NCBI GenBank assembly: GCA_033286805.1
Contig: GCA_033286805.1_4727.1
Source: a phage
DNA length: 64,000 nt
Strand: one strand, 5' to 3'
The translations under genes and the position numbers were made by a program. Shown piece by piece: positions 6,084 through 15,415 of the stretch. The notes below the pieces were generated by a model that worked only from the letters and a program-made list of their open reading frames with translations, made no database searches and was not told where the DNA came from. Position 1 is the stretch's first letter. Each line of letters opens with the position of its first letter.

Positions 6084-8993
6084 ATGAACGATATAAATAA
6101 AGGGCGCGTCGCCCTCGAACGTCAAATGAGCAATAATGACGTTGCGAAGGCACTCATGAACAAATTTGTCGCTCCTGCTCCGCAGTCACGTCTTTATAAT
6201 ACACGTGATGCGGAAGGAGCGAACGGTCGTTTCGGGTTAGTTGTTCCCGACCAAATGACGATGAACACGGTTACGCGTGCGACCGCGACAAACATCGAGG
6301 ATAATAAAAACATCCTCGAGTTGTTCCCTGAACTTAAACGCGTGATGCAGATCTATGTTGCCGCGTTGACGAACCCTAACGATCTTAAGACGGTCGAGAT
6401 GTTTATCGACAGCGAAGATTTCCCCGGCAGAGTCGCAGAAATCGTTCAGCCGATGATCGATACCATCGACACGCATTTTAAGAATATCTATAAAATAAAG
6501 ACGCTTATCCCTCGTATCATCGAAGACGTCTTCTTTATCAAGGGCAGTTATAACTTCGTTGTTCTGCCGGAAAGCACGCTCGACCGCGCCATTAATGGTA
6601 ACGGTCAACTGAAACTTGAAGAATACGGATTTAAAGACAACCATTTTGCAAGCTGGGGACTTTTAGGTAACGACAGTCGCAAACGCCACGAAAATCAACT
6701 ACCCGCGACGGTTTCGATGGAAGATTATTTCTCGGGTGTTAATGAAACCATACCGTACGATCCTGTTGTTCGCATAGACAGCATTAAGTTTACCAATACC
6801 CTGCTTCGCGATAAGGACGGTAAATTCATTGAAGCGAAGATCGATATTCCGGATATGGTTACGGTTGTCGATAACCCAGACATCCTCCGCATGCCTATTC
6901 TGCATCAACGTCGAGCAGCGACAGCAGTGCAGCGTGCGTTACGCGCAAACACGTTAGGAGGTAGTGGTTTGGTAACGCTGTCAGGCGATCCGACCCTAAC
7001 CGCTAACCGACGTGAGCTGTCGCAAGAACAGGTTAACGAGATCTGGAATAAACTCAACATCCAACGTCACACCAAGGTATCTCCCGTTTACGCGCTGGCA
7101 ACCCCAGATACACTCGATCGTCAAAGCGTCGGTCATCCTGGTGTGATGCACGTACCACCTGAGGCATTAGAACCCGTACATGCGCCTGGCGATCCGGAGA
7201 ACCATATCGGGTATTTGGTTCAGTTGGATGAGTTTGGTTATCCGGTGCGTTTGGTTGAAGATGCTGCGTATTACAAGCAGTTGGAAGGGCGGTTGTCGAA
7301 GATCACCGCAGATATCGCAGGTACGTCAAGCAACGGCATGGCGAGCGAGATGATTGGTGCGGCCAAGAACATGATCCAAGGTACGTCATGTAATCAGGTA
7401 GACATGTCGGCCTTCGTATCGTCGTACGAATCGCTGATGCAACGTTACATCGTTGAACGTATTGTCAACGGTTATCTTGGCAGTGCGGTGGAAATCGGCG
7501 CGACATCATCGTTTTACCTATCGATGCTTGCCCGTAGCCTCGCTCATAAGCAGACCCGTGTTTTGTTTATTCCTCGAGAGATGGTGACTTACATCGCTTA
7601 TGAATACAACAAATACGGTATCGGTCGTTCGCTGCTTGAAAGTACGAAGATGATCTCGTCGCAACGAGCCATGCTCATGGTTCAAGAACTGATGGCGAAA
7701 ATCAAAAGTTCGTTGAACTATACGACGCTAAGCGTAATGCTTGAAGACACCGACAGAAACCCGGTCGATACCGTCGAACAAGCGCTGCATAGTTTCGCTC
7801 GTGTCTACCAGTCTGGTTTCCCTCTGGGTGAAACTAACCCGATGGATATCATCAACGCGTACGAACGAAGCTCGATTCGATTGAAGGTTGAGGGGAATAA
7901 CCCACGCTTCCCGAAATTGAATACAGACGTCAGTGTTGAGCAGCGTAACTATCAGTCTCCTGATAATGAGCTGATGGATCGTTACCGCCGTGACCATTTC
8001 ATGGGTTTGGGAGTTTCTCCAGAGATTATCGATACTTCCTACCAATCTGAATTCGCAGCTTCTGTGATTACAGCTAACGCGATGCAAGAGAAACAGTTCA
8101 CGGTTTGTCGTGAGGTGATCACGAATGGGTTATCGGACCACATCAAGAAATACACGGCATACAGTCCCGTGTTGTTGACGTCGTTACGAAACACGGTTCG
8201 TGCGAACATGTCTAAGCTCTCCCAGGCACAATTGAAGCAGCTTTTTGGTAGCGATTTCGAAAACGGTGTTATCCGTAACGTTAACGCCTATCAGGAGATT
8301 GACGACCAATCAGCAACAATGGATCTGGATTACACTAAACCAGAAGTCCAGGAAGTTATTGCCGATGCTTATGTGTCCATGTTCTTAAACAGCCTGCGTG
8401 TGCGTTTACCGGATAGCAATGCTCGTCGCCTTGAAGATCAGGTACGTGAATATAATCAGTACAAGGAAGCGATTACTGCGCAACTTGATGATTATTTAAC
8501 ACCTGATTACGTCATGGGTCTGGGTGGGGTTGATGAAACAACGCTGCAGATGATCCGCGCATGCATTATTGGTACCGCGATGCGTACGTGGGCAAAAGAG
8601 AACAACTTCAATCAGGAGCTGGCTGATCTCTTCAGTCTTGACGATAAGAAGAATGCCGTGCAAGATTGGAAACGTATGTCCATGGAACATATTGAAGTCA
8701 TGGGTAAATGCATGGGTGATTTTGCATTGTATATTCAGAATCTGACGAAGAAGATTGAAGAGAAGATGGGAGCTCAAGCACAGGACGGCAGCGTTTCATC
8801 TGATGGTTCGTGGTCATCCGATTCAAGTAGCGATACCGGTTCTTCTGATGACTTCGGTGGCGATGACGATTTCGGAGATACCGATTTCGATACCGAAACG
8901 ATGGAGGAAACCTCAACAGAAGAAACAACCACATCTGAGGAAACGACTACCGACACAACGTCAGAAGACGACACTTCAGGTGGCGTTGTCTAA
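6084..8993 (+). CDS. hypothetical large protein (969 aa) with poly-acidic S/D/T/E-rich C-terminal tail
   Basis: ATG at 6084 with AAGGAG RBS 9 nt upstream; no internal stops; last 75 aa are almost entirely S, D, T, E, G. Confidence 0.7.
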   Translation: MNDINKGRVALERQMSNNDVAKALMNKFVAPAPQSRLYNTRDAEGANGRFGLVVPDQMTMNTVTRATATNIEDNKNILELFPELKRVMQIYVAALTNPNDLKTVEMFIDSEDFPGRVAEIVQPMIDTIDTHFKNIYKIKTLIPRIIEDVFFIKGSYNFVVLPESTLDRAINGNGQLKLEEYGFKDNHFASWGLLGNDSRKRHENQLPATVSMEDYFSGVNETIPYDPVVRIDSIKFTNTLLRDKDGKFIEAKIDIPDMVTVVDNPDILRMPILHQRRAATAVQRALRANTLGGSGLVTLSGDPTLTANRRELSQEQVNEIWNKLNIQRHTKVSPVYALATPDTLDRQSVGHPGVMHVPPEALEPVHAPGDPENHIGYLVQLDEFGYPVRLVEDAAYYKQLEGRLSKITADIAGTSSNGMASEMIGAAKNMIQGTSCNQVDMSAFVSSYESLMQRYIVERIVNGYLGSAVEIGATSSFYLSMLARSLAHKQTRVLFIPREMVTYIAYEYNKYGIGRSLLESTKMISSQRAMLMVQELMAKIKSSLNYTTLSVMLEDTDRNPVDTVEQALHSFARVYQSGFPLGETNPMDIINAYERSSIRLKVEGNNPRFPKLNTDVSVEQRNYQSPDNELMDRYRRDHFMGLGVSPEIIDTSYQSEFAASVITANAMQEKQFTVCREVITNGLSDHIKKYTAYSPVLLTSLRNTVRANMSKLSQAQLKQLFGSDFENGVIRNVNAYQEIDDQSATMDLDYTKPEVQEVIADAYVSMFLNSLRVRLPDSNARRLEDQVREYNQYKEAITAQLDDYLTPDYVMGLGGVDETTLQMIRACIIGTAMRTWAKENNFNQELADLFSLDDKKNAVQDWKRMSMEHIEVMGKCMGDFALYIQNLTKKIEEKMGAQAQDGSVSSDGSWSSDSSSDTGSSDDFGGDDDFGDTDFDTETMEETSTEETTTSEETTTDTTSEDDTSGGVV

Positions 8994-9399: not shown

Positions 9400-11958
9400 T
9401 TACTGTTCGTCGCGTTCCAACAGATACTCGGAAGCGGTAATACCGTTTACCGTACGTACTGCTTTCAGACGAGTATCATCACTCAGAATCACGGTAACAG
9501 ATTGCAGACCTTTTACTTTGGTTTCGAAGGTCTTGAACACCTGATCCAGCATACGAGCAATGCTTGGGTTGGTTGCAGCCGATGCGTGGGTGTAACCGCT
9601 TTGGTTCAGCTTCAGAATCTTGGCGTTGGTCGGTACGCGAACAACAACATGCGGACGCATCGCGAACACGCTATGATTAAACCAGTAAGCATCGTTGCTA
9701 TCTTCGTCGGTAACGATGTCTGGATTAACACGCATATCCTCGACAGCCGCATCCGCCAAACGCCGTTCGATTTCGTCAGCATCCAGAGAGCCATCTTTCT
9801 CCAGTTCTGCACGATACTCACTCATGGCAACCAGATGACGTTCACGATTCGCAGCGGATTTTTCGTGAGCTGCTTTCAGGTAGTCATGCATGTTGTACAG
9901 TTCAGCCATGGAAAGACGAATGTTCCACTGACCTTCGCCATCACGATTGCAGTAGAGGCACTTCAGCATGTTGACCCAGGTATAGTAGCAATTGGAGAAT
10001 TCATCTTCAATGAACTTCTGGTCCATTTTAAGATCGTGAATCAGCCAACCGGACAGTTCTCCGATATCATCAACGAAGCTAGAGATGGTGGTTTCAGAGA
10101 AGTTCTTCGGTACGATACGTTTGATCAGCTTGTTAACGTCTTTGGTCATGCTATCGTTCAGGAAATGCCAGATACGCAGAGGAATGACATCTCGATACTG
10201 TTGCATGATCTGACGATAAGCTTTGATATCGTCGCTACGACCTTTATCAATAGACAACGCATCCAGGAATTCATGGATTGCATCCAGCTCTTTGTCGGTA
10301 TAGGTTCCCAGATAGGAATTGACGGTGGCCAGGAATGCTAATGCGTCGTTTTGGTTGACGTCGGTGTTGGTCTGCTGAATGATCGCTACTGAAGCTTTGG
10401 TTTCAGCATCCTCAACGCTTGACGCTGCGATCGCATCGGTGACGGTAAACAGTTTCATTTCGCGCTGCTCACCGACAACGATTGGCTCACGCTGAACCGG
10501 CTTGTTAAGGCTAACACGAACAACTTCTGCTTGCGCGATACGATCCAGTTTTGCCATTTCCTGCTCTGCCATACGACGAGCGGTTGGATCTGATTCAAGT
10601 TCGATGTATTCCACTTCTTCCTCCGTGAGGGATGTAATGTCAACAATGGTTTCATGAAGAATTCCGTTTTCGTCGATACGTGCTCGACGAGCGAAGTGCC
10701 TGAAGTCATACAACGTCGGCCAACGACTATTAGGTGCAAAGTCTTTGGCTTTCAGACGCATCTGCATAAATTCTTCATGTTGAACAACACGACCGTAACG
10801 CTTAGCATCTTCGGTCGCATCAATTGGATTAACGGTCTTTGTTGCCGTAGCGGAACGAGCCGTACGAACCGGTTCCGGTTTCACCTGCGCAGGTTCAGGT
10901 TGAACGGGTTTCTGCTGCCCAGCCTTAACATGCCATTCTGGCTCTTCGTACTGTTCAGCAAATTGCTCGGCCGCTGCAAAGATATCGTTGATACCACCAA
11001 TATCTCCTTCAGGATTTGTCGAATATACTCGTGGTTGCGGTGCCTCGTAACGCGGCGCTGCGGTAGCAGGCGCGGCATCAACGATAGGATCATCATCACC
11101 AACATCATACAAACGGTTGAACGCACAATCCTTCGAATCAATGTACGATGGTGTTTGTGGTTGGACAACCGTAGGTCGAGGTTGTGTGCCGTATCCTGGT
11201 GTTGTTGGAGCCATACCACGCATAACTGCAGGACTAGGTTGGTATTGCGGTTGTGGGTAGGTTCCACCATACATGGCGTACGCAGGCTGTTGTGGTTGAC
11301 CATACCCGTTGCTAACCATCGCACTTGCTTGCGGCCCACGATAAGTCATCCCCATCTGCATCACCTGCTGCTTCAAACCACGTGACTTCTGAGCGATTTG
11401 CGCTAGGCTTCCGCTTTTATTCAGCTGCGTGTACTTGTTCGCGGCTTCCGGGTTAATGCGTGATAATTCAATCGCGCGATAATATTCCGGGTACTGATTA
11501 GGTTCAAAGAGCCACGTTACAAGATGATACAGCGCAACTGTGCTCACAGCAGCAGAGACGATCTGGTCGTCGGACGCGTTCTGTGGCATCGGGTTGATGT
11601 AAGAGAACACGTTCCAACAACAGTCTTCAACAAGCGATTCCATCATCATATCGTTATTGGTATAACGTGCGACGAACTCGGTTTGTATTTTGTCTTGCTG
11701 AGCGAAGTCTTTCAGGACATTAAAGATGGCTTGACGGATTTTGACGATCGTCGCTTCTTGGGTGATGAAGTTATAGTTCTGCTGATATGAGGGTTGTTGG
11801 TATTGTGGTGGTTGATAGGCGTTATTCGGATATGCACCGTACGGCGATTGCTGATACTGCTGCTGACGAACCTGTTCAGCCGCATAATTAATCGTGCTCG
11901 CATAAGGGTTTTCGCTATAGCCCATTTGCTGATACATGTTGTTACTGCCATTATACAT
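9400..11958 (-). CDS. hypothetical protein (852 aa) with Q/Y/P-rich low-complexity N-terminus and a second Q/P/Y-rich region
   Basis: ORF track; AAGGA RBS; N-terminal about 65 aa and aa 200 to 272 are Q/Y/P/N-rich. Confidence 0.7.
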   Translation of the reverse strand: MYNGSNNMYQQMGYSENPYASTINYAAEQVRQQQYQQSPYGAYPNNAYQPPQYQQPSYQQNYNFITQEATIVKIRQAIFNVLKDFAQQDKIQTEFVARYTNNDMMMESLVEDCCWNVFSYINPMPQNASDDQIVSAAVSTVALYHLVTWLFEPNQYPEYYRAIELSRINPEAANKYTQLNKSGSLAQIAQKSRGLKQQVMQMGMTYRGPQASAMVSNGYGQPQQPAYAMYGGTYPQPQYQPSPAVMRGMAPTTPGYGTQPRPTVVQPQTPSYIDSKDCAFNRLYDVGDDDPIVDAAPATAAPRYEAPQPRVYSTNPEGDIGGINDIFAAAEQFAEQYEEPEWHVKAGQQKPVQPEPAQVKPEPVRTARSATATKTVNPIDATEDAKRYGRVVQHEEFMQMRLKAKDFAPNSRWPTLYDFRHFARRARIDENGILHETIVDITSLTEEEVEYIELESDPTARRMAEQEMAKLDRIAQAEVVRVSLNKPVQREPIVVGEQREMKLFTVTDAIAASSVEDAETKASVAIIQQTNTDVNQNDALAFLATVNSYLGTYTDKELDAIHEFLDALSIDKGRSDDIKAYRQIMQQYRDVIPLRIWHFLNDSMTKDVNKLIKRIVPKNFSETTISSFVDDIGELSGWLIHDLKMDQKFIEDEFSNCYYTWVNMLKCLYCNRDGEGQWNIRLSMAELYNMHDYLKAAHEKSAANRERHLVAMSEYRAELEKDGSLDADEIERRLADAAVEDMRVNPDIVTDEDSNDAYWFNHSVFAMRPHVVVRVPTNAKILKLNQSGYTHASAATNPSIARMLDQVFKTFETKVKGLQSVTVILSDDTRLKAVRTVNGITASEYLLERDEQ

Positions 11959-11992
11959 TTCTTACGATCCTTTTTATTTATTCGGTTATGTG

Positions 11993-13789
11993 TCAATCGA
12001 TTATGTCACGATCGTTAATTTCTACAATTTCTTCATCGAATCGACCGACGTCTTTCTTCAAGCCTGCATTGGTTGCTGCAACGTCATTTGCAATTTGTGG
12101 GGTAATGATTAACCGACCACGTTCGTCGATAGGTGCGTACATACTGAACTTTTGACGTCCGGTTGGTTCGGAGTGTGGAAGATTCAGATAGCTTGCACAG
12201 AACGGGATGGAACCACTAACCAAACGACTCTCGTCAGCCAATGCAGCACCGCCTGCGTTTTGGCTCTGGAGAACAACATGCGTGCTCACTTTGAACAGCA
12301 TGCAATCACCCGGTGACTGAATCGATGTTGCCACTTTCTCACGTTTATCACGATTGCTCTGGATATTGAGAATCGCTTCCGTTGCAACTTGATTTCGCAA
12401 CGCCTTCTGCACATCGCGATTGGTCATCTCTTTACGGTTGTTCTGTCGTTTGCCACGTTCTGTGGTTTTAAGATGGAACCCCAGTTTAAAGATGCTTTTA
12501 CGCACATCCTCCATGACATATTCCAACACCATCAATTCCTTACCGAACATCGTCGTGGTGTCAACACGACTCATTTCGATAGTAACATTGTCAATCAGAT
12601 ACGCCATAAATTCGTAGAAGTCGTCGCAAGGAATATTTTCCTGTTTGAACTTCTTCTGTTGAATTTCGTCAACGTAAAGATCGAGACTGTCGATGTGGTG
12701 GTTTACATCACGCAACAAACGCGCATCCGCATTGTTGTTATTAAAGATAATCAAACCGAGTAATGTACGCCAATGGTCTGGCGCATTTGCGAACTCCTCA
12801 ACCGGATAGTCTTCCGGAAAACGATCGTAATAACGGTCGATGAGATATAGGAACGCACCGACAAGGCCAAGAACAATACGTTCCGTGCCTCCACGTCTTA
12901 CAGCAATTTGAATATCAGGATGTTTGTAACGTACAGCGCTAGCGCTACGGCTTTTACCGCTTTTGCTGATACTAAAGCCTTTAGGAATAACCCCCATGGT
13001 GCGATAGATTACCCATTGGTCACGCGGAAAATCACGTTCAGCAAGGTTCCGTCCGGTTACGGCTTCGACACCTGCAAAACGTCGGAAACACTCACCCACC
13101 CCGTACTTCGCAAAGAGATAGTGACCCAGTGTGGTTACGCTGGTGTGGTTGATGTTGTCACCGTTCACTTTACTTTGTTTGGTAAGATGATAGATTTGCG
13201 ACCAGGGTAATGACAGGTAATGACGATAATCGATACCGGTCGGTGTATCATTGCTCAGGAACTGATACGGTGTACGTTTAACCGTGATTTTATCACGCGG
13301 AAGCATGATGAACGCCATGTCTTTCGTGTAACTGATTACGGGGTCAGCGAGTACCGCACTGAGAATGAAGTTCGCACCACGTAGACGCATTTTACCACCC
13401 TGACCTACCGCGGGTAATAGGAGAGGATGTCGGATAATGCAGTAGTCCTTTCCGGGTTCACGACGGTCGCCTGATTCCATCGCGCCGTACCAGCGGAATT
13501 CCAGCATCACCATAAACACATCGGAAGGCGCAAGGTCGAAGGTCAGCTTACCGCTATCCTTCCCTTTGGTTTTCTTTCCTCCGCTTAAGTAGTGGAACTG
13601 TTCGCGGGCCATACAGCGACGCAGGCCATGATACACCAGATCCTTAGGTAAACTATCTTTGCTGTTCCGCCAAAGACGATCAACATAGGACTCAACATCT
13701 TGCATCTTATCGACGACGATGTTGCGTGCTATCTTCTCGTTCATCTTCGGTGCAAGCTCAGCGACAGCTTTGCAGAATCTAGGATCCAT
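11993..13789 (-). CDS. hypothetical protein (598 aa)
   Basis: ORF track start 13792 is GTG; adjacent ATG at 13789 has AAAGGAG RBS at 6 nt spacing. Confidence 0.65.
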   Translation of the reverse strand: MDPRFCKAVAELAPKMNEKIARNIVVDKMQDVESYVDRLWRNSKDSLPKDLVYHGLRRCMAREQFHYLSGGKKTKGKDSGKLTFDLAPSDVFMVMLEFRWYGAMESGDRREPGKDYCIIRHPLLLPAVGQGGKMRLRGANFILSAVLADPVISYTKDMAFIMLPRDKITVKRTPYQFLSNDTPTGIDYRHYLSLPWSQIYHLTKQSKVNGDNINHTSVTTLGHYLFAKYGVGECFRRFAGVEAVTGRNLAERDFPRDQWVIYRTMGVIPKGFSISKSGKSRSASAVRYKHPDIQIAVRRGGTERIVLGLVGAFLYLIDRYYDRFPEDYPVEEFANAPDHWRTLLGLIIFNNNNADARLLRDVNHHIDSLDLYVDEIQQKKFKQENIPCDDFYEFMAYLIDNVTIEMSRVDTTTMFGKELMVLEYVMEDVRKSIFKLGFHLKTTERGKRQNNRKEMTNRDVQKALRNQVATEAILNIQSNRDKREKVATSIQSPGDCMLFKVSTHVVLQSQNAGGAALADESRLVSGSIPFCASYLNLPHSEPTGRQKFSMYAPIDERGRLIITPQIANDVAATNAGLKKDVGRFDEEIVEINDRDIID

Positions 13790-13828
13790 CACACACTCCT
13801 TTCAGAAAGTTGCTTAAGCAGATTAAAG

Positions 13829-15265
13829 TTACTTTTTCGATGACGCTTTCTCAAGAATCTTGAAAAAGGTCATACCTATACCGACAACAGCCGCGGTTAT
13901 GCTTGCAGCGGCTTTCCAAACATCGACGTTACGTTGACGTCGCGCTTCTTCCGCTTCACGTTGTCTTTTTGCCTCTTCATCACGTCGACGTATCTCAGCA
14001 GCAAACTCGTCGTGCTTACGTTTGGATTCTTCGTCTCGACGACGAAGTTCAGCGACGAATTCTTCATGTTTGCGTTTAGCCTCGTCATCACGACGTTTTA
14101 AATCAGCTTGATAATCTTCGTGTATTTGTTTACGTAGATCATCTTGACGCTTCATTTCGGCTTGGTGTTGTTCCATCCTACGTTTTTGTTCGTCTTTAAG
14201 CTGATCGAGTTCGGCTTTATGTTGTTCATCACGCAGCTTTGCGTCGGCGCGATGCGCCTCATGCATCTGTGCGATAACTGCCTTGTGTTCATCCGCCATA
14301 CGTCGCATTTCAGCCATCACCCCTTTAAGGGTTTCTTCTGATGCCTTACGTTCGTAGCTACGTTGGTCGAAATCATTTTTGTAGGCTTCTTTTTGGATGG
14401 GGTCGCGCCAATGTAATGCCGATTCACGTGTCGGAAAAACATTGTACTTCCACATCTCTTTTTCCAAATCTTCGACCGGTACGAAGATGGAGTCATTATT
14501 ACCGAAGGTAACCAACATACCTGGCGCACCTGCTCCATTCGTTGGTTTTATTTCGAACGCTTTCCCCAGCACGTTAACCCATAAGCTATACGGATTATGA
14601 AAGTCGGGTGGCGTCCAATGGATAGTGAGTTGCGTTCCGAGAATCCGGAAACCCTCTGTTTTTCCCGTCAAGCTCCGCGCGCACGTTGCGATGTAGGGGT
14701 GATCAATCCCTTTCGTAACGTGGTCTGCGCTTTTGTATTCTCCTTTAACTTTTACGATTGCCACGTTGATTTGCGCGACATAAGCGGGTTGATTAAAGTT
14801 CAGCGTGTTGAGGTCAATTTGACATATTTCATCCAGCGTATCGTACCAGTCTTGCTGGTCTAATAGACGCGGCATTTTCTCTGTGTTAACAATACGACGG
14901 ATATGCGGTTTCCTTATCGCGTAACCTGTGCCGTTTTTAACACGGAGTATATCCCGACGTCTACCCGCGTAGACGAAGTTTCTGAATGCACCATTCGCAT
15001 TAGATACGTCATGGCTGTCAACTATTACAGGACTACGAAATTTTGAACGTCGTACGATCCTGAATGTATTGCCGTCCTCAACCCTACCAGGAATGTACTG
15101 GAACATATTGTCGGAGGTGATAACCAACACGGTATGGCCAGATTCATTAATACATGCCCATCCTAATTCCAGGTCATATAACGGTTCGGCATAACCGTCA
15201 ATGCGATATGCGTGCGTACCATCCCACGGTTCGAACGCGGTATCACATATTGGCATGGAGGGCAT
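13829..15265 (-). CDS. hypothetical tail-anchored coiled-coil protein (478 aa)
   Basis: ORF track start is TTG; ATG at 15265 has GGAGG RBS; globular N-terminal region, K/R/E/D-rich heptad-like region with 18-aa repeats, then hydrophobic segment AAASITAAVVGIGMTFFKIL near the C-terminus. Confidence 0.6.
   Translation of the reverse strand: MPSMPICDTAFEPWDGTHAYRIDGYAEPLYDLELGWACINESGHTVLVITSDNMFQYIPGRVEDGNTFRIVRRSKFRSPVIVDSHDVSNANGAFRNFVYAGRRRDILRVKNGTGYAIRKPHIRRIVNTEKMPRLLDQQDWYDTLDEICQIDLNTLNFNQPAYVAQINVAIVKVKGEYKSADHVTKGIDHPYIATCARSLTGKTEGFRILGTQLTIHWTPPDFHNPYSLWVNVLGKAFEIKPTNGAGAPGMLVTFGNNDSIFVPVEDLEKEMWKYNVFPTRESALHWRDPIQKEAYKNDFDQRSYERKASEETLKGVMAEMRRMADEHKAVIAQMHEAHRADAKLRDEQHKAELDQLKDEQKRRMEQHQAEMKRQDDLRKQIHEDYQADLKRRDDEAKRKHEEFVAELRRRDEESKRKHDEFAAEIRRRDEEAKRQREAEEARRQRNVDVWKAAASITAAVVGIGMTFFKILEKASSKK
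13925..14090. repeat. about 2.5 tandem copies of a 54-bp unit inside the coiled-coil gene
   Basis: repeated protein unit RRRDEE(A/S)KRKH(E/D)EF(V/A)AE(L/I); the DNA units are near-identical. Confidence 0.55.
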
Positions 15266-15415
15266 CGTCAACCTCCATCTGATTGAAAACTATCACGCAT
15301 AATACATTTCCCTTTTCTTGTTCTTATCAAGCCGACAGCCGACGGTTTCAGCATCGTTCCTAGCGCGAGAACGACCTTACGTGTTGTCTATGCCTTATTC
15401 ATCGAAGGCGTCTGT

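Follow-up and report, generated by a model that had tools for sequence, protein, structure and literature searches.

The subject of this analysis is a gene on the minus strand of a 64,000-nucleotide stretch of phage DNA (contig GCA_033286805.1_4727.1 of GenBank assembly GCA_033286805.1), which is called here, at its full length, the window. The window is a ~97% relative of Escherichia phage vB_EcoM_Goslar (97.2% nucleotide identity), a nucleus-forming, compartment-forming chimallivirus, so that the gene lies in a Chimalliviridae genome; a first, sequence-only reading of this DNA, which had supposed a compartmentalising phage, was right in this respect. The open reading frame (ORF) encodes 852 amino acids (aa) that are 98.9% identical to Goslar gp038 (YP_009820723.1, 'hypothetical protein'), and is thus gp038. 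The protein carries two nearly uncharged low-complexity regions rich in Gln, Tyr and Pro, at aa 1-63 (LC1) and ~197-272 (LC2), and its neighbours in the window encode a PhiKZ-type major capsid protein (MCP), the portal and a subunit of the non-virion RNA polymerase (nvRNAP). With high confidence as regards both identity and architecture, gp038 is assigned here to the JADA / phiKZ gp124 family as its Goslar-group representative. It is not an orphan but a new, sequence-divergent member of a recently described family, and most of its low-complexity signal is that of an ordinary disordered linker.

The start codon of gp038 lies 34 nt past the stop codon of the upstream gene, gp039, and is preceded at a distance of 9 nt by a Shine-Dalgarno-like AAGGA, so that LC1 should be translated. 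A terminator scan found no terminator-like site on the minus strand between both genes, the sigma-70 promoter and terminator scan being uninformative for such phages.

Assignment of gp038 to the JADA family

JADA was described as gp316 of phage Pa36, the ortholog of phiKZ gp124 (Muralidharan et al., Mol Cell 2026, PMC12931631; bioRxiv 10.1101/2025.07.08.663546). Its C-terminal domain (C-domain) is a rigid ring-like homodimer with a novel fold, solved by electron cryomicroscopy (cryo-EM) at 2.1 Å (PDB 9RP3), and the purified protein is a discrete dimer suited to cryo-EM and mass photometry (PMC12931631). The position of the gene next to that of gp123 has been described as invariant (PMC12931631).

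A gp123-like nvRNAP subunit upstream is the defining genomic neighbour of JADA, and the product of gp039 matches phiKZ gp123 and 235 phage records (tblastn). Among 16 other diverse chimalliviruses, 15 (phiKZ, 201phi2-1, Eowyn, PCH45, RAY, FLC4-4C, RTH11, FBKp24, Ea277G, Haymo, JM-2012, BONAISHI, YC1, PS1 and Sureiya) possess a gene of 687-981 aa directly downstream of, and co-oriented with, this subunit; together with gp038 they make up the 16 counterparts compared below. The same arrangement is found in a metagenomic sister clade (contig L018). The sole exception is Photobacterium phage PDCC-1, where five small ORFs of 89-245 aa lie downstream of the gp123 homolog (L012 6211-8587); JADA may have been lost, fragmented or relocated in Aphroditevirus, which would make this genus an exception to the 'invariant' position.

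The C-domain provides the second line of evidence. Weak collinear C-terminal BLAST links join 11 of the 16 counterparts, gp038 included, into one component. When C-domain profiles were compared by hhalign, a one-clade profile matched the family with a probability of 96.5% (E 8e-10), and a two-clade profile matched the 15-member family with 98.6% (E 1e-15) over 246 columns (target aa ~407-677); phiKZ and 201phi2-1 alone gave 96.6% (E 5e-10, phiKZ aa 368-629), and the reversed-sequence controls 0.2%. The motifs shared by the C-domains (alignment A2) are T..VN..L, I..F..D...L..YL and, at the C-terminal end, ...D-G...D...L. The family profile also matches PDB 9rp3_A ('Gp316/JADA') with E 3e-98, a result which holds by construction because phiKZ gp124 is in the alignment. 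Moreover, the top four Foldseek matches in BFVD are full-length matches to uncharacterised myovirus proteins of 663-874 aa (probability 0.93-1.0, E 2e-6 to 3e-4), one of them with 687 aa, the exact length of the PCH45 counterpart. They are consistent with JADA membership without proving it, and the JADA homology of those proteins is putative.

The layout of gp038 is also that of JADA. An N-terminal domain (N-domain), a long disordered linker and a large C-domain are delimited by composition, by the secondary structure predicted with AlphaFold2 (AF2), by relative confidence (predicted local distance difference test, pLDDT) and by a boundary Trp, in agreement with the published division of JADA into residues 1-170, linker and 270-721. 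W342 ('EEPEWHV') aligns with W270 of phiKZ gp124 ('KDSWGATVEV'), the first residue of the solved C-domain; the gp038 linker therefore spans about aa 200-342 (~140 aa), and LC2 corresponds in position to the JADA linker, residues 170-270. The AF2 runs, made with alignments of 5 and 8 sequences, are usable for secondary structure and relative confidence only. They place helical blocks at aa 57-200 and from ~378 onward, and give largely coil with pLDDT < 50 at aa 1-62 and 169-381, with short predicted helices at aa 7-11, 20-34, 170-200 and 323-336, the last present in both models; composition likewise points to helical blocks at aa 64-200 and beyond aa ~386.

As far as sequence searches reach, the relatives of gp038 form only two small clades. 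A tblastn search of 50,697 phage records returned only Goslar itself, and a word-indexed search of 5.8 billion clusters returned four proteins with 80-99% identity (the Goslar clade); with a 16-member C-domain alignment, the same search found only an FBKp24-like pair. An exhaustive HMMER scan with aa 273-852 through 1.84 billion representatives added a single clade, that of P0007 (38% identity, E 9e-100); P0008, from the same scan, was rejected on inspection as a spurious repeat protein. The contig of P0007 (L018) carries, in this order, a PhiKZ-type MCP, a gp40-like gene, an nvRNAP subunit, P0007 and a small ORF; the place of the portal is taken by a 965-aa gene that runs in the opposite direction. 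Conservation within the Goslar clade is highest in the C-domain (467 aa), over which P0003 has 100% identity to gp038, compared with 77% in LC1 plus N-domain, a mosaic which suggests, at sequence level, intragenic recombination or much faster evolution of the N-terminal third. In PhiPA3 (HQ630627.1 / NC_028999.1) the JADA ortholog matches in two pieces at 125956-128023, annotated gp140 and gp141, a pattern that a split gene, a frameshift or an error of annotation could produce.

Besides the position, layout and boundary Trp described above, gp038 shares with JADA (Pa36 gp316 / phiKZ gp124) its restriction to Chimalliviridae and a C-domain homologous at profile level. It differs in a pairwise identity below ~20%, which BLAST, phmmer, Pfam and PHROGs do not match, and in its length, being 131 aa longer, with an extra 63-aa Q/Y/P tail at the N-terminus and extra helical material in the C-domain (~aa 640-760), the latter common to the Goslar group. 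It also carries an unusually Tyr-rich, two-armed variant of the JADA linker: LC2 (aa 206-272) has 12% Tyr, and aa 152-277 has 10% aromatic residues versus 6% in the G/P/Q/M linker of phiKZ.

JADA is an early protein, highly abundant at 10 min. Expressed on its own it is diffuse, and upon infection it gathers in foci at early-infection (EPI) vesicles; Avs5 Sir2 NADases, from three clades, respond to its C-domain by activation, and a function in early transcription or DNA binding was suggested by the authors (PMC12931631). Avs5 activation, early expression and EPI-vesicle localisation are on record for Pa36/phiKZ JADA, not for the Goslar group. In an antisense oligonucleotide (ASO) screen of phiKZ, phiKZ124 was an 'uncharacterized, non-core' hit with weak plaque reduction (plaque-forming units/colony-forming units +) and a reduction of ChmA (++), and its knock-down strongly perturbed phage transcription at 30 min. 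Furthermore, a secondary source lists phiKZ gp124 with gp058 and gp287 among the early proteins binding host DnaX/FtsZ, the pairing not being stated and the report being unconfirmed at its origin (PMC11849849).

Elsewhere, JADA is mentioned in one 2026 review only, where it is called a protein 'of unknown function'. Neither the family nor any condensate comes up in the core-genome paper or the 2025 chimallivirus review, orf124 is not treated in the main text of the transposon-mutagenesis paper, and a literature search for Goslar gp38 yielded no paper. In PHROGs, the Pseudomonas clade is phrog_15010 and RAY gp4 is phrog_11639, neither with an assigned function, and Pfam has no model for the family. 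JADA belongs to the small number of chimallivirus early proteins whose importance for infection has been demonstrated, and is a conserved trigger of the widespread Avs5 defence. The assignment of gp038 extends it to the main E. coli model chimallivirus, for which genetics, CRISPRi-ART and electron cryotomography are established, and shows positional conservation far beyond the reach of sequence clustering, in contrast to the 'non-core' listing of the ASO study. The coordinates of gp038, its parts and the features discussed further on are collected in Table 1.

Table 1. Coordinates of gp038, its parts, its surroundings and compared genes (window positions, unless a locus number beginning with L is given)
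Feature	Position	Strand	Basis
gp038, 852-aa coding sequence	9400..11958	-	ORF list; ATG 11958, stop 9400
LC1, Q/Y/N/P-rich N-terminal tail, aa 1-63	11770..11958	-	composition, Tyr spacing; lowest pLDDT, mostly coil in both AF2 models
N-terminal helical domain, aa 64-196	11371..11769	-	helices, best N-terminal pLDDT 56-75; weak profile match to family N-domains
LC2, Q/P/Y/G-rich first half of inter-domain disordered linker, aa 197-272	11143..11370	-	composition; coil, pLDDT 21-30
Linker second half, acidic, Pro/Ala-rich, aa 273-342	10933..11142	-	conserved columns (alignment A3), AF2 helix, motif scans
'LYDVGDDDP', aa 283-291	~11086-11112	-	within linker second half
Conserved short helix, aa 322-342	10933-10995	-	kept in sister clade
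P/Q/K/E/V-rich stretch, partly insertion versus sister clade, aa 343-385	10804..10932	-	gaps in P0007, P0009, P0010; composition
C-terminal domain, homologous to JADA C-domain, aa 386-852	9403..10803	-	hhalign, shared motifs; most conserved part within clade
Core profile match of C-domain, aa ~407-677	9928-10740	-	hhalign
AAGGA, Shine-Dalgarno-like site	11968..11972	-	9 nt upstream of ATG; read directly from sequence
Upstream co-oriented nvRNAP subunit (phiKZ gp123 homolog, Goslar gp039)	11993..13792	-	phrog_2943 'polymerase', E 7e-120
Arg-rich-linker JADA genes	L004 9642-11705, L007 6188-8278, L009 5275-7479, L010 6139-8301, L011 6150-8333		compared with L002, L003, L005, L006
gp040 (Goslar gp040 / phiKZ gp122 family)	13829-15271	-	
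Hydrophobic C-terminal segment of gp040	13853-13909	-	Kyte-Doolittle
gp040 counterparts with hydrophobic tail	L002 6909-7991, L003 6916-7989, L004 7058-7993, L005 1-996, L006 3448-4485, L018 2925-4166		Kyte-Doolittle
Acidic low-complexity tail of portal gp036	~8766-8990	+	composition

Composition of the low-complexity regions and of the family linkers

Against a background of 50 non-overlapping ORFs of the window (20,085 aa, Q+Y+P = 12.1%), both regions are far outside the common range. The best 60-aa window of gp038 reaches 53% Q+Y+P, versus at most 30% in any of the 49 other ORFs, and the binomial tails are ~1e-13 for LC1 and ~5e-12 for LC2. The sequence-only reading, which had reported an 852-aa protein with two Q/Y/P-rich regions, was accurate in this and in the positions that it gave for them. 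LC1 consists of 22% Q, 19% Y, 14% N and 10% P, with 3 charged and 2 aliphatic (I/L/V) residues; its aromatics are all Tyr (n=12), at near-even spacing (gaps 7, 5, 5, 6, 10, 5, 3, 5, 5, 5 and 4). LC2, bounded at aa 206-272 by composition and at 197-272 by entropy, has 19% P, 15% Q, 12% Y and 12% G, with 3 charged residues and 8 Tyr. No tandem repeat was found in the DNA beneath these regions, so that recent slippage is ruled out as their origin.

Low charge, low aliphatic content and regularly spaced aromatics, all present in these regions, justify the likeness to prion-like domains that had been noticed from the sequence. The likeness does not extend to the Q/N-rich criterion of Michelitsch & Weissman, reportedly at least 30 Q/N per 80 aa: the maximum Q+N per 80-residue window is 26 in gp038, compared with 30 in P0003 and P0004, 33 in Eowyn gp146 and 34 in PS1. 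'Prion-like' is therefore a compositional description, not a test that gp038 passes.

LC1 is, judging from its distribution, an N-terminal addition of the Goslar clade. It is absent from the sister clade (33-38% identity), which has a ~25-aa N/G/Q leader instead, and from several distant positional counterparts (phiKZ, 201phi2-1, Eowyn and the Arg-rich group described below); RAY, YC1, PS1 and Sureiya have, independently, low-complexity tails of a comparable kind at the N-terminus. The inter-domain linker is far more widespread, since a hydrophobic-poor segment of ~75-210 aa is found in 14 of the 16 counterparts, the equivalents in PS1 and YC1 measuring only 39-63 aa. Thus, when the conservation of the low-complexity regions in homologs, proposed at the outset as a refuting test, is considered, the answer is divided: LC1 is missing from the sister clade and distant relatives, and a linker like LC2 is present in nearly all counterparts, with a composition that is not conserved.

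Within the Goslar clade and in the sister clade, linker composition is retained but not sequence. In the former, the Q/Y/P/N/G content of the low-complexity regions (54-76%) is maintained through substitutions and indels, P0003 and P0004 carrying an insertion of 11-13 aa rich in Q/P/Y in LC1. Across the family, two linker types can be distinguished. Polar uncharged linkers, rich in Q/N/P/G/Y/M and with a fraction of charged residues (FCR) of 0.05-0.14, are found in Goslar, phiKZ, 201phi2-1, Eowyn, RAY, JM-2012 and the longest BONAISHI segment. Arg-rich polyampholyte linkers (R 18-26%, FCR 0.36-0.50, net charge near 0), also rich in Asp, Gly and Ser and with RG/RD/RS-like repeats, are found in PCH45, FLC4-4C, FBKp24, Ea277G and Haymo. 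The RTH11 linker is intermediate, and the Sureiya segment (FCR 0.23) lies outside both classes. The type is not determined by the host, since Klebsiella phages include both, as do Erwinia phages, and the Arg-rich group clusters by C-domain similarity, so that the pattern looks like a clade-level switch.

The presence of the linker is conserved and its chemistry is not. The existence of two flavours is a new, if modest, observation; linker composition is not a subject of the JADA paper, whose text contains neither 'low complexity' nor 'condensate' (PMC12931631). The low-complexity observation by itself reflects an ordinary property of a disordered linker. What it adds is a feature invisible to the structural study: a linker that is nearly always there and whose low-complexity sequence comes in two opposite chemistries, joined in Goslar by an additional Tyr-rich tail.

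Proposed role of the low-complexity regions and alternative explanations

Taken as a whole, the best explanation, which we hold to be probable, is that gp038 is a JADA member whose linker and tail low-complexity regions act as flexible tethers; for the tether role considered on its own, the sequence features leave the chances about even. In the proposed arrangement, two helical N-domains would be tied to the C-terminal ring homodimer by the disordered linker, and the low-complexity regions would work as long flexible tethers, bringing partners that lie tens of nanometres away from the ring within range of the dimer's N-domains. The sticky residues of these tethers, spaced Tyr/Gln here and Arg/Asp in other clades, would add weak multivalent contacts, which would help to concentrate JADA at the vesicle-associated transcription/translation site; disorder and length, and not the exact chemistry, would be what is conserved. 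The two linker flavours offer an experimental handle on the arrival and concentration of JADA at the early-infection vesicle.

Several points weigh against this explanation. As regards membership, searches of Pfam, PHROGs and PDB sequences with gp038 alone (direct phmmer in the case of PDB) gave nothing meaningful; sub-threshold matches to Cas9_C_2 and cwf21 fell in a coiled-coil-like helix and were dismissed. A crude full-length hidden Markov model of the family did not tell gp038 from shuffled sequences, as its alignment is spoilt by the low-complexity regions, and domain-wise hhalign with reversed controls was used instead; membership depends, therefore, on profile-profile comparison and synteny. 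The N-domain match is only suggestive (two-clade profile: probability 63%, E 7e-5, 75 columns, reversed control 0.2%), and the shallower one-clade profile gave no N-domain signal. The fold is not confirmed either: the AF2 models have pLDDT 36.7 and 42.0 with poor tertiary structure, and because both are poor, the Foldseek results against PDB (350,542 chains), with 9rp3_A at rank 4 and 9rp3_B at rank 40 (E 1.4-3.7), are non-significant. As regards the role, expression timing and localisation come from Pseudomonas orthologs and would apply to Goslar-type phages by analogy, the change between polar and Arg-rich linkers could be explained just as well by a composition that does not matter, and the combination of tether and stickiness is one that we infer from sequence.

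Many of the top Foldseek hits other than 9RP3 were sigma factors (PDB, E ~1-4, pLDDT-42 model); they are probably helical noise, and are recorded in view of the adjoining nvRNAP gene and of the role in transcription suggested for JADA.

The alternative that survives best sees the disordered regions chiefly as carriers of short linear motifs on which host or phage partners would dock. Such motifs would be 'LYDVGDDDP', the conserved acidic helix (aa 322-342) and the boundary motif with its acidic residue and Trp, and the Q/Y/P-rich remainder would be compositional filler. Between the clades of 33-38% identity, few linker positions are invariant (D285, D289-D290, G322, A330, F333-A334, E338, P340 and W342), several of them in the conserved short helix (G-I-N-D-I-F-A-A-A-E-Q-F-A-E-Q-Y-E-E-P-E-W). 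The pattern [LA]YDV[GP] / FDYDEDDV recurs in polar linkers that are otherwise unalignable (phiKZ gp124 aa 249, L002; 201phi2-1 gp204 aa 241, L006; P0007 aa 225), as does 'D-x-W...VEV' in phiKZ, Eowyn and P0007. Against this, the patterns were defined post hoc, and their presence in 35% of the family members compares with 12.5% of shuffled segments, the sequences being non-independent; they are absent from the Arg-rich-linker clades, and the DnaX/FtsZ binding report is unconfirmed at its origin. Docking as the main function is thus considered rather doubtful.

The Goslar-group YDVG motif, followed by an acidic run, recalls E. coli single-stranded DNA-binding protein (SSB), in which a disordered linker leads to an acidic tip that needs a free C-terminus for partner binding. 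Both have a G/Q/P-rich uncharged linker, then an acidic, hydrophobic-flanked motif ('...LYDVGDDDPIV' in gp038 and 'FDYDEDDVI' in the sister clade, versus '...DFDDDIPF' in SSB), attached to an oligomeric core. The gp038 motif is, however, internal and not at a free C-terminus, and the protein lacks the oligonucleotide/oligosaccharide-binding fold, so that the resemblance may be coincidental.

A further alternative holds that the Q/Y/P-rich regions are true prion-like domains whose Tyr 'stickers' drive phase separation, and that gp038 scaffolds a condensate located at the early-infection vesicle or on the surface of the phage nucleus. FUS/hnRNP-type prion-like low-complexity domains are rich in S/Y/G/Q, and the Arg-rich linker type represents the other classic condensate and RNA-binding grammar. 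The gp038 regions are FUS-like in being uncharged and polar (LC1 < 5% charged), with evenly spaced Tyr (19% of LC1, gaps 3-10), almost no aliphatics, predicted disorder and a multivalency that would come from oligomerisation: by analogy with the ortholog C-domain dimer, each particle would expose two (LC2) to four (LC1 + LC2) low-complexity arms. The change of JADA from diffuse to foci upon infection, and the co-sedimentation of Goslar gp038 with large assemblies (~175-fold over gp039 in the CsCl fraction, see below), also speak for a condensate. On the other hand, the regions are short (63 and ~70 aa; 63-76 aa versus >200 aa in FUS/hnRNP), Pro-rich and, at 26 versus 30 per 80 aa, low in Q/N; their composition is not family-conserved, and LC1 is missing in the sister clade and several distant relatives. 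The FUS/hnRNP likeness would thus be one of functional analogy, not of membership. Moreover, Pa36 JADA is not constitutively self-condensing, as it is diffuse alone and a discrete dimer when purified; its foci can be explained by simple binding to a localised partner, and neither the 2025 chimallivirus review nor the JADA paper mentions a condensate. We therefore regard this alternative as unlikely. The suggestion that gp038 is a scaffold or condensate component keeps one part, the EPI-vesicle foci of Pseudomonas JADA being compatible with a scaffold or hub, and loses the other, the low-complexity regions not being supported as drivers of condensation.

More speculatively, JADA could be the scaffold of an unrecognised condensate or multivalent hub on the cytoplasmic face of the EPI vesicle, and later of the nuclear shell, a hub that would link ribosomes to the RNA polymerase machinery and to phage mRNA as it emerges. 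Its building element would be the linker, in two interchangeable sticker grammars: spaced Tyr/Gln in Goslar, Eowyn, RAY and phiKZ, and an Arg-rich polyampholyte in PCH45, FBKp24, Ea277G, Haymo and FLC4-4C. The Goslar clade would have added LC1 as a second Tyr-rich arm. If this were true, Avs5 would guard a phage condensate scaffold; we consider it quite improbable. ChmC / phiKZ gp67 and phiKZ gp014, chimallivirus factors linked to RNA or ribosomes, are comparable to JADA in that they are non-structural, early or abundant, and located at the EPI vesicle or the nuclear shell. ChmC, like gp038, co-purifies in the Goslar virion preparation; no sequence relationship to gp038 was detected, and their folds and genomic positions are different.

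The weakest alternative takes gp038 as a packaged virion protein, with ~25 copies per head, ejected together with the DNA, its low-complexity regions being flexible or unfoldable so as to pass the tail, or acting as internal linkers. It draws on the liquid chromatography-tandem mass spectrometry (MS) of CsCl-purified Goslar virions in a cryo-EM preprint (Table S4, 10.64898/2026.04.21.720040), in which 26 peptides cover 28% of gp038 and its copy number per virion is estimated at 17-39 (~25), more than the virion RNA polymerase subunits (7-21) and ~175-fold more than gp039 (0.14) or DNA polymerase (0.12). The gene also lies in a head/portal neighbourhood, and an injected protein would likewise be 'present early' at the EPI vesicle. 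The same preparation, however, contains chimallin (~126 copies), ChmC (~76), PhuZ (~170) and thymidylate synthase (~20), gp038 amounting to ~1/5 of chimallin and ~1/3 of ChmC. The main text of the preprint, which describes 28 modelled structural proteins, does not mention gp38 (10.64898/2026.04.21.720040); it is assigned to no virion substructure, and the records of its orthologs phiKZ gp124 and 201phi2-1 gp204, unlike their neighbours, bear no virion or MS annotation. In addition, the translation knock-down phenotype of phiKZ124 and its rise to high abundance by 10 min point to de novo synthesis. The MS data show that gp038 sediments with large assemblies without distinguishing which; fragments of the nuclear shell may carry it along, or it may build dense assemblies by itself. 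A packaged protein is accordingly improbable, and the flexible virion linker once offered as an equal alternative to a condensate is weak on the same grounds.

Neighbouring genes

Immediately upstream of the nvRNAP subunit gene lies gp040. In the 7 of 7 phages checked, members of this family carry a ~19-aa hydrophobic segment at the extreme C-terminus (Kyte-Doolittle 19-mer mean 1.25-2.0), which looks like a tail anchor at sequence level. Knock-down of phiKZ122, as that of phiKZ124, strongly perturbs phage transcription (phiKZ ASO study), and a membrane-anchored gp040 partner beside JADA and the nvRNAP could relate to the EPI vesicle. Just ahead of the hydrophobic tail, aa ~385-440 of gp040 consist of ~3 tandem charged helical units, RRRDEE[AS]KRKH[ED]EF[VA]AE[LI]. 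The counterparts are shorter (413 aa in the sister clade, 311-360 aa in the others), so that this repeat region may be an expansion.

Finally, the portal protein gp036 ends in a ~75-aa acidic low-complexity tail rich in S/T/D/E (SSDGSWSSDSSSDTGSSDDFGGDDDFGDTDFDTETMEETSTEETTTSEETTTDTTSEDDTSGG). A similar E/D-rich tail is found in the PDCC-1 gene at the portal-equivalent position, which lies on the opposite strand and is annotated as a virion structural protein.

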